From the UHGV virus genome UHGV-0378151: 6,071 nucleotides of DNA. The stretch is one strand, 5' to 3'. The position numbers and the translations under genes were made by a program. Of the stretch, positions 1 to 5,712 are shown piece by piece (the first letter of the stretch is position 1; the number at the start of each line of letters is the position of its first letter). The DNA is from a virus. A model generated the notes under the pieces. The model made no database searches. It saw nothing but the letters and a program-made list of their open reading frames with translations, and was not told the DNA's origin.

Positions 1-117
1 CCTTTTCAGGGTCGGCAAAATTAGCCAGCAAGCGACGGATAATTACGGGGATTTCAGCCGCGACCTTCTCCGGCAAATCCTTGTCTTTTTCGTCCTCCCT
101 TACAATGTTGTCGAACC
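1..117. repeat. Left copy of 117-bp inverted repeat (window-truncated, may extend further left)
   Basis: Bases 1-117 equal the reverse complement of 741-857 at 115 of 117 positions (mismatches at 62 vs 796 and 111 vs 747). Both copies encode the same peptide NIVREDEKDKDLPEKVAAEIPVIIRRLLANFADPEK on opposite strands. Confidence 0.9.
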
Positions 118-4326: not shown

Positions 4327-4740
4327 ATGGCAACGAATGAAAGCATCATGGCGCTACCGCTGGCGAGTAAATTTAAAGCCGAAGCGCGGGCAATGGCTGA
4401 CAGAGGGTTATCAACCTACGAGGCCGTATATCAACTCAACAAACTGGAAGAACAGGACAAGCCGCGCGCTGATGCGATTATGGCGCTTCATGAACATAAC
4501 GACTATCAGCCGCTGTTACGTGCAATGGCAAACGTGCCATGTATTAGCGTCGATAATGCTCGTGAAATCCTGAACATGACCATAGAGCAGGAGCGCCCAA
4601 AGGTTGCACCAGAGCTTACCGCAGCCTTTGAAAACTTTATGGACATGCACAGCCCGCAAGCCGTATCAGCTGGCATGGCATACGATGGCAGAAACCAGGG
4701 CGATGACGGCGACATCGATCACATACTGAAAACCATCTGA
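4327..4740 (+). CDS. Hypothetical 137-aa acidic protein, positioned where lambda has FI after the capsid gene
   Basis: ORF track. SD AGGGGGA at 4316-4322. No recognisable similarity to lambda FI or any other family; the functional guess is positional only. Confidence 0.5.
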   Translation: MATNESIMALPLASKFKAEARAMADRGLSTYEAVYQLNKLEEQDKPRADAIMALHEHNDYQPLLRAMANVPCISVDNAREILNMTIEQERPKVAPELTAAFENFMDMHSPQAVSAGMAYDGRNQGDDGDIDHILKTI

Positions 4741-4745
4741 GACAA

Positions 4746-4770
4746 GGCCGGAGAAATCCGGCTTTTTTTT
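4746..4770 (+). terminator. Rho-independent terminator
   Basis: GGCCGGA-GAAA-TCCGGC hairpin followed by T8, directly after the stop at 4738-4740. Near-identical to the hairpin at 2472-2493. Confidence 0.75.
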
Positions 4771-4947
4771 ACGGGTCCTTTCCGGCATATGGACCCGTTA
4801 CGGGGCGGCGACCTCGCGGTTTTTCGCTATTTATGAGCCTTTTCAGGGGGGTGGTGGTGGTTTTGTTGTTTGATCTATCTTTATGAATGAAAAGGGAAAG
4901 ATGCAAGCAATACACCAACCTGAAGCAGTAATTAAGTTGGTGTATTA
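4771..4947 (+). other. cos site 1 (plus orientation): lambda-type cosQ and cosN with a divergent cosB
   Basis: ACGGGTCCTTTCCGG...TTACG / GGGCGGCGACCT / CGCGG-TTTTTCGCTATTTATGA is almost base-for-base the lambda right-end/left-end junction as I recall it. The 12-nt cohesive-end sequence GGGCGGCGACCT is at 4803-4814. Downstream of about 4835 it no longer resembles lambda cosB. A perfect 9-bp inverted repeat TACACCAAC (4911-4919) / GTTGGTGTA (4936-4944) ends 3 nt before the ATG. Confidence 0.8.
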
Positions 4948-5490
4948 ATGAAATCTCATCTGATGAACAAAAAAAACATGGCGAAAAGCTGCCGTGTAAG
5001 TGCGACAGCGTTCGACAAGTGGGGAGTAACTCCCGTTGAGCGTAAAGGCCGTGAGGCGTTTTATGATGTTGCCAGCGTGATAGAAAATAGGGTTAACAAT
5101 GCAATTAGCCAGCTTATAAACGACAAAGGCGAGATTGACGATGATGAACTTTTACGAGTCAGGATCAGATTACTGACAGCACAGGCAGAGGCGCAGGAAC
5201 TTAAAAACGATCGCGATCGCGGTGACGTGATTGATACTGAGTTTTGCCTGTACGCGCTTTCAAAGCTGGCGAGTCAGATTTCATCAATCATGGACAGCCT
5301 CCCGCTTACTATGCAAAGGAGCTTCCCACAGATTACCCCCGCCATGCTGGATAGGCTTAAAAGGGAAGTGGTTAAAGCCTGTAATGCCAGTGCCAGAGTT
5401 GCCGACAACCTCCCACAGATACTGGCTGATTACTTGAAAGAAACAACCGGAAACGTACCGGAAAAGTTGCTACAGAAGAAAGGCGAGTAA
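4948..5490 (+). CDS. Terminase small subunit, lambda Nu1 family
   Basis: Colinear with lambda Nu1: N-terminal region (KSCRVSATAFDKWGV vs ADIFGASIRTIQNWQEQGM) and strongly in the C-terminal half (LTAQAEAQELKNDRDRGDVIDTEFCLYALSKLASQISSIMDSLPLTMQRSFP vs LTRAQADAQELKNARDSAEVVETAFCTFVLSRIAGEIASILDGLPLSVQRRFP). Alternative start at ATG 4963. Confidence 0.9.
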   Translation: MKSHLMNKKNMAKSCRVSATAFDKWGVTPVERKGREAFYDVASVIENRVNNAISQLINDKGEIDDDELLRVRIRLLTAQAEAQELKNDRDRGDVIDTEFCLYALSKLASQISSIMDSLPLTMQRSFPQITPAMLDRLKREVVKACNASARVADNLPQILADYLKETTGNVPEKLLQKKGE

Positions 5491-5712
5491 CAGACGCGCA
5501 ATTATTGAACAAAACTGAGAAACGACATGAAAGCGTCATAAATCGCCATTTTAGATGATTACCGTGTCGTTTCTTTTTATTGTGTATCTATTTAAAAACA
5601 AATAGTTATGTTCGAGAAGTACCGACATGCTTTTTCCAGAAAAATTTTCATAAACAGATAAAAACCGCGAGGTCGCCGCCCCGTAACGGGCCATAATTCC
5701 AGGAAGGACCCG
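5491..5712 (-). other. cos site 2 (minus orientation): lambda-type cosQ-cosN plus lambda-like cosB
   Basis: Reverse complement of 5661-5712 reads CGGGTCCTTCCTGG...CCCGTTACGGGGCGGCGACCTCGCGGTTTT, with a perfect match of about 30 bp to cos1 (4794-4823). Continuing on the minus strand, TTTATGAAAATTTTC, CATAACT and the inverted GAAACGACA (5519-5527) / TGTCGTTTC (5565-5573) motifs track lambda cosB closely. Complement of the cohesive-end 12-mer is at 5670-5681. Confidence 0.8.

Follow-up and report, generated by a model that had tools for sequence, protein, structure and literature searches.

We analyzed the UHGV virus genome UHGV-0378151, a stretch of 6,071 nucleotides that we refer to as the window, with a focus on its cos packaging site and on the small terminase gene (terS) that follows it. 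The open reading frames (ORFs) of the window encode, in this order, the C-terminus of a primase, SSB, a PerC-family regulator, a lambda-E-like capsid protein, a lambda-D-like decoration protein and a 137-aa protein, after which come cos, a 180-aa small terminase subunit (TerS) of the Nu1 family and a 93-aa protein. EcCIIHE3034 has the same gene order and a TerS 98 % identical to that of the window; EcCICFT073 also has this order, with RppA (144 aa) where terS stands. A 95 % identical element in E. coli NCTC9112 adjoins tRNA-Pro and adds an integrase, an alpA-type helix-turn-helix (HTH) regulator, Icd, Ash and the full primase; no tail or lysis genes were found in that element. We identify the window as the right half of an island of the EcCICFT073/EcCIIHE3034 type, one of the Gram-negative phage-inducible chromosomal islands (PICIs). 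Placement in the capsid-forming (cf-PICI) or P4-like class was considered and rejected, as the relatives are devoid of terL, portal, head-tail genes, sid, psu and delta. Both the element and its TerS were already annotated and had been noted in 2018: EcCIIHE3034 encodes TerS (PMC6092414), and SatelliteFinder treats the small terminase as a core PICI component (PMC10085698).

Directly upstream of terS lies cos1, which is a member of the lambda-type cos class by its cosQ and cosN but not by its cosB. We number it from the first base of the cohesive end, so that bp 1 is position 4803. A pattern search recovered the 12-nt lambda cohesive end, GGGCGGCGACCT, as an exact match at 4803-4814 on the plus strand (0.03 chance matches expected per window), between the flanks TTACG and CGCGG that are the same in lambda. 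The cosQ core GGGTCCT occupies bp -29 to -23, at the spacing to the nick found in lambda. Alignment with lambda confirms both the cohesive end and cosQ (4773-4779) and gives 59/69 identities over bp -34 to +35; over the same interval the lambdoid phage PhiR5_1 shares 65/69 positions and cos1 of EcCICFT073 66/69. The initial annotation had called this region almost identical to lambda, which holds for cosQ, for cosN and for the flank CGCGG.TTTTCGCTATTTATGA but not for the spacer between cosQ and cosN, where most mismatches fall and which is of the PhiR5_1 type. Further right, the window sequence CGCTATTTATGAG corresponds to CGCTATTTATGAA in lambda, bp 35 being G in the former and A in the latter. 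The left half of cos1 has the appearance of a copy taken from lambdoid helpers, closest to PhiR5_1-like phages.

For a wider comparison we aligned 18 island cos1 regions, which represent 14 different sequences and come from islands of E. coli, Enterobacter and Citrobacter. Relatives outside E. coli were reached by protein search and contig look-ups; scanning species-representative genomes with the TerS protein gave no confirmed locus. The cosQ sequence is unchanged in all 14 distinct sites from the three genera. Likeness to phage cos sites stops at about position 4838, after CGCTATTTATGAG, and the window and EcCICFT073 cos1 split directly beyond it. Beyond bp +35, lambda agrees at 44/110 positions, approximately background, and no phage among 50,697 records matches past window position 4848. 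A search of cos1 for the lambda R core (CGTTTCC/GGAAACG) and the phage-21-type core (TGTCG) found neither. The earlier observation that cosB has been replaced is thus borne out.

The longest invariant runs among the 14 distinct sites are cosQ, CGCTATTTATGAG, and the pair formed by GGTGGTGGT (bp 51-59, positions 4853-4861) and TTGTT (bp 61-65), the last two being invariant in the E. coli, Enterobacter and Citrobacter islands alike. This block, bp 51-65, coincides with the coordinates of R3 in lambda (bp 50-65) and in N15 (bp 48-60) (PMC9026076), and the candidate R3-equivalent around it resembles GAGGTTGTTGTTT of N15 (bp 48-60) as well as GAGGTTGGTTGTTGT of MD8/Hali (about bp 44-60), upstream of terS. 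Compared with N15 R3, the island R3-like block agrees at 8/13 positions, in the same place and with the same period-3 pattern. A second conserved element sits in inverted orientation at the R2 position. Its sequence from 4912 on (ACACCAACCTGAA) is invariant in 11/11 E. coli islands, and CAATACACC(A/C)AC is preserved in 12/14 distinct sequences across genera, with CTGAA next to it in E. coli. Its CACCA core stands at bp 111; in cos2, a second cos site described below whose cosB aligns with that of lambda, the inverted R2 core CGACA stands at bp 113. As in N15 and in Pseudomonas D3-like phages, the R sequence of the island is G/T-rich, with (A)GGTTGGTG or GGTGGTGG for a core. Thus cos1 does not have the lambda-type R3-I1(IHF)-R2-R1 sequences but retains the forward/inverted layout at the R3 and R2 positions.

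The inverted element also contributes one arm to a perfect 11-bp inverted repeat, AATACACCAAC at 4909-4919 and GTTGGTGTATT at 4936-4946, which has a 16-nt spacer and ends 1 nt short of the terS ATG (4948). Inverted repeats of at least 11 bp arise in 0.12 % of 5000 dinucleotide-preserving shuffles of 4815-4950. The initial annotation had reported this repeat as 9 bp long and 3 nt from the start codon, and had read the differing binding region that contains it as the signature expected of an altered DNA specificity. The repeat is present and perfect, with the dimensions given here, but is not as such the conserved determinant; the most conserved element is the bp 50-65 block, which had gone unmentioned, and of the two arms only the left is conserved. 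The right arm is specific to the lineage and lies partly over the ribosome-binding region. Read as its reverse complement, the left arm is AGGTTGGTGTATTG, and it begins with AGGTTGGT, as the MD8/Hali motif also does. At the right arm, relatives carry GTTGGGATATT, GTGGGGATATT, CAGAGGT or AAAGGTGG, all of them purine-rich and Shine-Dalgarno-like, and the left arm shows no compensating change. The perfect repeat is therefore peculiar to the window/Nissle/IHE3034 lineage, in which three substitutions took the complementarity of the arms from 8/11 to 11/11. A generally conserved perfect repeat, whether as TerS site or as RNA hairpin, was rejected on account of this uncompensated variation.

A repeat in this place could instead fold in the transcript and hide the ribosome-binding site and start of terS, so that it would serve translational control and not be a pair of TerS sites. 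The predicted free energy of -17.9 kcal/mol (z-score -3.4) speaks for such a hairpin, as does the right arm, which ends 1 nt before the ATG and holds the only Shine-Dalgarno-like GGTG before terS. The pairing, however, is unconserved, the right arm becoming GGGGAT, AGAGGT or AAAGGTGG opposite an invariant left arm, and Rfam gave no match. Moreover, the left arm occupies the R2 position and is kept there as a DNA sequence, as a protein-binding site would be. We regard the hairpin as a distinctly improbable explanation of the repeat; in the window lineage, an RNA role and a TerS-site role could coexist.

The adjacent ORF is a Nu1 homologue, as first annotated. It matches Pfam PF07471 with 82.6 bits (cut-off 30) and PHROG 57, "terminase small subunit", with an E-value of 8e-53, and it aligns with lambda Nu1 over its full length (36 % identity, residues 6 to 166, E 1e-33), the homology extending across the gpA-binding region; NCBIfam has no model for it. 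The closest phage TerS is gp1 of N15, with 44 % identity overall and about 60 % in the DNA-binding domain as counted from the alignment. The recognition helix is nearly the same in the two proteins, (A/Q)AFDKWGV, and residues 6-50 of the island protein align with the DNA-binding domains of lambda and N15. An AlphaFold2 model shows a winged helix-turn-helix at residues 5-54 (strand, helix 1, helix 2, beta-hairpin, helix 3) with pLDDT of 72-86. Met6 (4963), where the lambda/N15 alignment begins, was considered as the start of terS and rejected, since the Enterobacter and Citrobacter homologues preserve the ATG at 4948 and the Shine-Dalgarno-like purines ahead of it but have Leu at position 6.

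The two ends of TerS resemble different phages. Queried by tblastn, the first 62 residues have their only counterparts in Pseudomonas D3/MD8-like phages, an Alteromonas phage, N15 and an Enterobacter phage of the N15 kind (best 52-62 %), and lambda-like E. coli phages are not among the hits at E-values up to 1; the DNA-binding domain is about 32 % identical to the Nu1 domains of E. coli lambdoids. The last 63 residues find E. coli lambdoids best, with 52 % for PhiR5_1, 48 % for PhiR12 and 37 % for lambda, and residues 119-166, the segment homologous to the lambda TerL-binding region, are 35 % identical to lambda and 54 % identical to PhiR5_1. By these comparisons TerS is a mosaic of a DNA-binding domain of the N15/Pseudomonas-phage class and an E. 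coli lambdoid-like C-terminus. The altered DNA specificity initially proposed for it agrees with a DNA-binding domain that is not of the E. coli lambdoid type, but this specificity would be that of an existing class and not a new one. No phage in the collection has this cosB, or a TerS more than 45 % identical. Table 1 lists the features of the locus.

Table 1. Coordinates of the packaging features in the window. Bp numbers refer to cos1.
Feature	Position	Strand	Description and basis
Intrinsic-terminator-like hairpin and T-run	4744-4770	+	3' of the 137-aa ORF; 9-pair stem, 5 G-C pairs
cosQ of cos1	4772-4780	+	CGGGTCCTT, core GGGTCCT at 4773-4779; identical in lambda, PhiR5_1 and CFT073 phage 4
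cosN of cos1	4801-4816	+	Aligned with the cos annotation of phage DE3/lambda
Conserved right flank of cosN	4825-4837	+	CGCTATTTATGAG, bp 23-35; unchanged in 14/14 island cos sites
R3-equivalent	4850-4867	+	GGTGGTGGTGGTTTTGTT, bp 48-65; proposed main binding site of island TerS
Spacer between conserved blocks	4868-4907	+	Lambda I1 position; A/T-rich, partly conserved
Inverted R2-equivalent	4908-4924	+	CAATACACCAACCTGAA, bp 106-122; reverse complement TTCAGGTTGGTGTATTG; contains left repeat arm 4909-4919
Right repeat arm	4936-4946	+	GTTGGTGTATT, bp 134-144; lineage-specific R1-like copy; overlaps terS ribosome-binding region
terS	4948-5490	+	180-aa Nu1-family small terminase; PF07471, PHROG 57
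terS winged-helix DNA-binding domain	4948-5109	+	About aa 1-54
terS C-terminal segment	5302-5445	+	About aa 119-166; homologous to lambda TerL-binding region
cos2	5510-5712	-	Second complete cos, convergent with cos1; terminator scan and pattern search
cosQ of cos2	5711-5705	-	Pattern search
Cohesive end of cos2	5681-5670	-	Pattern search
cosB cores of cos2		-	R3 5627-5623, R2 5569-5565, R1 5527-5523; aligned with lambda, PhiR5_1 and CFT073 phage 4

Conservation divides both the site and the protein in two. Among the 11 E. coli islands, residues 1-50 of TerS have a mean identity of 96 % and residues 119-166 of 74 %; in the Enterobacter and Citrobacter homologues, which are 57 % identical overall, the DNA-binding domain is nearly unchanged. 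On the DNA side, the cohesive end varies while the R3 block stays constant: it is GGGCGTCAGGCG in E. coli S586 and AGGCGGCAGCGT in Citrobacter islands. These variant ends were located at 364-375 of locus L014 (E. coli DETEC-S586) and at about 2850-2865 of loci L019 and L020 (Citrobacter). That the S586 and Citrobacter cosN differ while the R3 block and the TerS DNA-binding domain are the same suggests adaptation to helpers with other cosN. A variable cosN next to a constant R3 is the pattern expected if cosQ and cosN track the large terminase subunit (TerL) of the helper and cosB tracks the TerS of the island. Overall, the joint conservation of the DNA-binding domain and the cosB blocks, with variation in cosN and in the TerS C-terminus, supports a cosB that is matched to TerS.

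Sequence anatomy, homology, joint conservation and mosaic origin are direct observations. On their basis we think it probable that cos1 joins a helper-type half for cutting and termination to an island cosB, and that the latter is bound by the island's own TerS, which would recruit helper TerL. The left half (cosQ, cosN and the CGCTATTTATGAG flank) would give helper gpA/TerL its nicking site and, when approached from the cosQ side, its termination signal. The right half would be a cosB on the lambda ground plan, with an R3-like element in forward orientation (bp 48-65) and an R2-like one in inverted orientation (bp 106-122); only in the window lineage would a forward R1-like copy at bp 134-144 complete the perfect 11-bp repeat. 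Island TerS would bind the R3-like and the inverted R2-like elements through its N15-class winged-helix domain, and its C-terminus, of the E. coli lambdoid class, would assemble with helper TerL. TerL would then nick cosN, package rightward towards terS and stop at the next cos1 of the concatemer. Unlike in the Rpp system, helper TerS would not be needed as a bridge. Binding, TerL recruitment, cutting, polarity and independence from helper TerS are in this way predicted from sequence.

The idea of a satellite-matched cosB used by the satellite's own TerS, already put forward in the initial annotation, gains comparative support from these data, while its general arrangement has been published for EcCICFT073: lambda-like cosQ/cosN with a foreign cosB, the pair cos1/cos2 and the Rpp mechanism (PMC6092414, PMC6739421, PMC9026076). 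There, cos1 is the site required for transfer (PMC6092414, PMC6739421), and EcCICFT073 is the only PICI of this type for which helper-dependent induction, packaging and transfer are published. Like the window, it has the capsid and decoration genes, the 137-aa ORF, the terminator, cos1, a specificity gene, a convergent cos2 and the 93-aa ORF, with DNA near-identical up to bp +34 of cos1 and a conserved element at the R3 position. It differs in its specificity gene, RppA of 144 aa versus a 180-aa Nu1 homologue with a TerL-binding-like C-terminus, in its cosB (30/110 identity) and in the repeat at the R3 position, (ACC)3 versus (GGT)3 in the window. The EcCICFT073 cos1 sequence (L004, 2607-2623) reads ACCACCACC at bp 55-63, the reverse complement of the TerS-type (GGT)3-4 (window 4850-4861); ACCACCACC is identical in four Rpp islands (PMC9026076). 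TerS- and Rpp-type islands have the same R3 motif in opposite orientation, with unrelated binding proteins.

This kinship raises a different possibility, namely that island TerS acts as Rpp does, forming mixed complexes with helper TerS, retargeting the holoenzyme to cos1 and blocking helper packaging, so that helper TerS would be essential. It is encouraged by the location of terS exactly at the position of EcCICFT073 rppA, beside a cos1 identical to bp +34, and by the known action of Rpp, which mimics the dimer interface of the TerS DNA-binding domain (PMC6739421). The central oligomerisation segment of island TerS (QAxAQELKN) is well conserved with phage Nu1 proteins, which makes mixed oligomers conceivable. 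Against it, Rpp proteins, which have a winged helix-turn-helix and a coiled-coil dimerisation helix, are 139-154 aa long and without the TerL-binding end (PMC9026076), whereas island TerS is full length and Nu1-homologous through the gpA-binding region. No similarity between TerS and RppA was detectable (E 3.4), and a PDB sequence search returned neither the lambda Nu1 DNA-binding domain nor any Rpp chain. With about 32 % identity to lambdoid Nu1 domains, the DNA-binding domain of TerS also argues against a mimicked dimer interface. We therefore judge an Rpp-like mode unlikely; as far as sequence goes, the window-type island is not an Rpp system, and the predicted consequence is that, in contrast to EcCICFT073, helper TerS is unnecessary to it.

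About 870 bp downstream of cos1 lies cos2, which was not among the observations of the initial annotation. The two sites have opposite polarity and bracket terS; EcCICFT073 is arranged alike. The cores of cos2, TGTCG, CGACA and TGTCG, stand at bp 55, 113 and 155 as in lambda, and blastn extends its phage similarity to about 105 bp beyond cosN (82.9 % to PhiR5_1). Its R3, I1, R2 and R1 align with PhiR5_1 and with CFT073 phage 4 (21 type), identity over bp 36-145 being 62 % and 68 %, respectively, and the I1 region has an IHF-like site with 1 mismatch. Thus cos2 has the lambda-type R3-I1-R2-R1 layout with 21-type R cores. Since this helper-type cosB is complete, the island may be a substrate for the helper's terminase as well; with its 21/PhiR5_1-type cosB, cos2 would provide a second packaging route, dependent on helper TerS and running in the opposite direction. 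It is also present in the NCTC9112 relative (L001) and in the Rpp-type EcCICFT073. Among the 11 E. coli islands (the window and L005-L014), cos2 is within the retrieved flank in 4, and none was found within 400 bp downstream of terS in 7; cos1 and terS are in all TerS-type islands compared.

Packaging might accordingly be left to the helper alone, mainly via cos2, or at cos1 by helpers with an N15-class TerS, the island terS being redundant or interfering. The helper-like R3, I1, R2, R1 and IHF-like site of cos2 fit this view, and helper terminase on its own sufficed to transfer cloned EcCICFT073 cos sites, though at a reduced level (PMC6092414). It is at odds with the absence of cos2 within 400 bp of terS in those 7 islands while cos1 and terS are always there. 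Transfer of EcCICFT073 moreover needs cos1, and deletion of cos2 raises it (PMC6092414). Across genera, the R3 block is conserved jointly with the DNA-binding domain, and among E. coli phages only N15 has such a DNA-binding domain. Helper-only packaging consequently seems to us an unlikely account of the island.

Several observations weigh against packaging of cos1 by island TerS and helper TerL. The IHF consensus, allowing up to 2 mismatches, was not found in the I1-equivalent of cos1, unlike in lambda, and its matches across the window do not exceed chance in total. The R3-like and R2-like elements agree at 8 of 11-12 positions, a modest likeness between low-complexity G/T-rich sequences. 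In the protein, the AlphaFold2 model is confident only in the N-terminal domain and of low confidence in the remainder, and a Foldseek search with it gave no match at E <=0.001, only weak ones to MerR, RacA and excisionase winged-helix proteins (E >=0.07), which are no more than consistent with the winged helix. No sequenced phage Nu1 exceeds 52 % identity to the C-terminus, which makes binding to any given helper TerL uncertain. N15 terminase can package lambda DNA (PMC9026076), and an N15-class domain may therefore not discriminate strictly between island and helper. The sole test published for this island type, induction of EcCIIHE3034 in the strain that naturally carries it, yielded <1 to 40 transductants per ml (PMC6092414), and thus there is no known efficient helper. 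Ahead of cos1 stands a terminator-like hairpin, and a search for a sigma-70 promoter of terS found none. Finally, given the complete helper-type cosB of cos2, the island could be packaged without its own TerS.

Beyond EcCICFT073, several known systems share parts of this arrangement. Lambda has the same cohesive end and cosQ, the same right flank save its last base, a forward element at bp 50-65, an inverted one at about bp 107-122 and terS immediately downstream. Its R sequence CGTTTCC is unrelated to that of the island, it has an IHF site where the consensus was not found in cos1, and its terS starts at bp 191 while the ATG of the window stands at bp 146. Compared with Nu1, island TerS has a wing 5 residues shorter in the DNA-binding domain and a linker 13 residues shorter, and no terL follows its gene. 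N15 has a G/T-rich period-3 R3 at the coordinates of the R3-like block of the island and shares the gp1 class of DNA-binding domain, but it has a single R3 and no R2-like element, its cosN reads GGGCGGCGTCCG, the C-terminus of gp1 is of the lambda type, and the phage encodes a terL; the window has the extra conserved inverted element and a C-terminus of the other class.

Outside the lambdoid phages, the pac-type Staphylococcus aureus pathogenicity islands (SaPIs) SaPI1 and SaPIbov1 offer an analogy, in that an own TerS and helper TerL together redirect packaging (summarised in PMC6092414, PMC6739421). These islands package by the headful from pac, with a TerS of an unrelated family, and have Ppi as a separate interference protein; the window has a cos substrate, whose cutting and termination signals must match helper TerL. 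The cos-type SaPIbov5 (PMC5052747) resembles the window in having a helper-type cos and a capsid-protein homologue, but its cos is a copy of the helper's and it encodes no TerS, and in the window only cos2 behaves in this way. By analogy, the window system works like a hybrid of EcCICFT073 cos anatomy and SaPI TerS specificity logic. As far as the searchable literature shows, the cosB anatomy of TerS-type islands, their N15/D3-class specificity and their mosaic terminase are undescribed; no dissection of the cos of a TerS-type E. coli island was found in it.

The TerS-type cosB-terS module is present in 766/5426 complete E. coli genomes (14 %), including O157:H7, Nissle 1917 and IHE3034, and the RppA-type module in 97 of them. 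The TerS type is about eight times commoner, and the uncharacterised type is thus the common one. Such a distribution also bears on whether cos and terS are parts of a decaying prophage remnant that now have no function. Annotations routinely class such elements as defective prophages, and EcCIIHE3034 transferred poorly from its native strain (PMC6092414). Against decay stand the intact terS ORF, the presence of the module in so many genomes and the conservation of specific non-coding blocks over three genera amid varying neighbour bases. The sister element EcCICFT073 is a proven mobilisable PICI (PMC6092414, PMC6739421), and we consider a mere remnant highly improbable.

Further observations concern the surroundings of cos1. 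A perfect 8-bp inverted repeat, ACGGGTCC (4771-4778) and GGACCCGT (4791-4798), encloses cosQ and the cosQ-cosN spacer; EcCICFT073 cos1 and PhiR5_1 have its distal arm and its proximal arm minus one base, and it is absent in lambda and in HTH-type islands. The T-run of the terminator-like hairpin runs directly into cosQ, and the hairpin is kept in EcCICFT073 and in the NCTC9112 island. A subgroup of the TerS islands (L006-L011 and L014, positions 1-307) has a 127-128-aa AlpA-like HTH gene directly upstream of cos1, replacing the 137-aa ORF and the terminator, and no cos2 within 400 bp downstream of terS. The 137-aa protein of the window (4327-4740) matches PHROG 1999 (function unknown) and, more weakly (E 7e-10), the C-terminal portion of the PHROG 53 head-maturation-protease family. 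That portion is where the nested Nu3 scaffold of lambda lies, and the island may thus encode an E-like, D-like and Nu3-like trio.

At the left end, window positions 1-117 repeat 741-857 in inverted orientation with 98 % identity. Primase genes match positions 100-750 at 97.7 %, with no long ORF listed on either strand; this segment is most likely read from the minus strand and runs off the left end. The plus-strand primase C-terminus begins at about 743, where the best genome matches also begin, and positions 1-857 are either a rearranged primase gene with an inverted duplication or an assembly chimera. In the Enterobacter-type relatives L015-L018 (about 5040-6510), the island borders directly on a truncated capsid gene of the lambda-E type, behind which lie FI and head-tail genes. 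By their appearance, these relatives are helper-embedded PICIs that sit within the capsid gene of a prophage, a kind described in PMC10111431.

PICIs spread virulence and defence genes, and capture of the packaging motor decides which helpers move them. For Gram-negative cos islands only the Rpp solution has been worked out so far; the TerS module appears to use a different, SaPI-like one. More broadly, and tentatively, the commonest cos-type PICI of E. coli may use a chimeric TerS, with an N15/D3 DNA-binding domain and a lambdoid TerL-binding C-terminus, that would suffice alone, without helper TerS, to retarget helper TerL to an island R3/R2 cosB, the convergent cos2 being a second, helper-TerS-dependent route. 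To the specialist the general idea is expected rather than surprising, and the value lies in the precise sites and in the natural pair with Rpp-type islands. Positions 4853-4867 and 4908-4924 are testable candidates for the binding sites, and the genetic prediction is that island transfer should survive loss of helper terS. The combination of helper-class cosQ/cosN, island-class cosB and mosaic TerS would also be a ready design for packaging specificity in lambda-based delivery. If this reading is true, TerS-type and Rpp-type islands, which do not differ before bp +34 of cos, are a natural matched pair that could settle the question of Murialdo and Feiss whether the R3-bound subunit must itself carry TerL.

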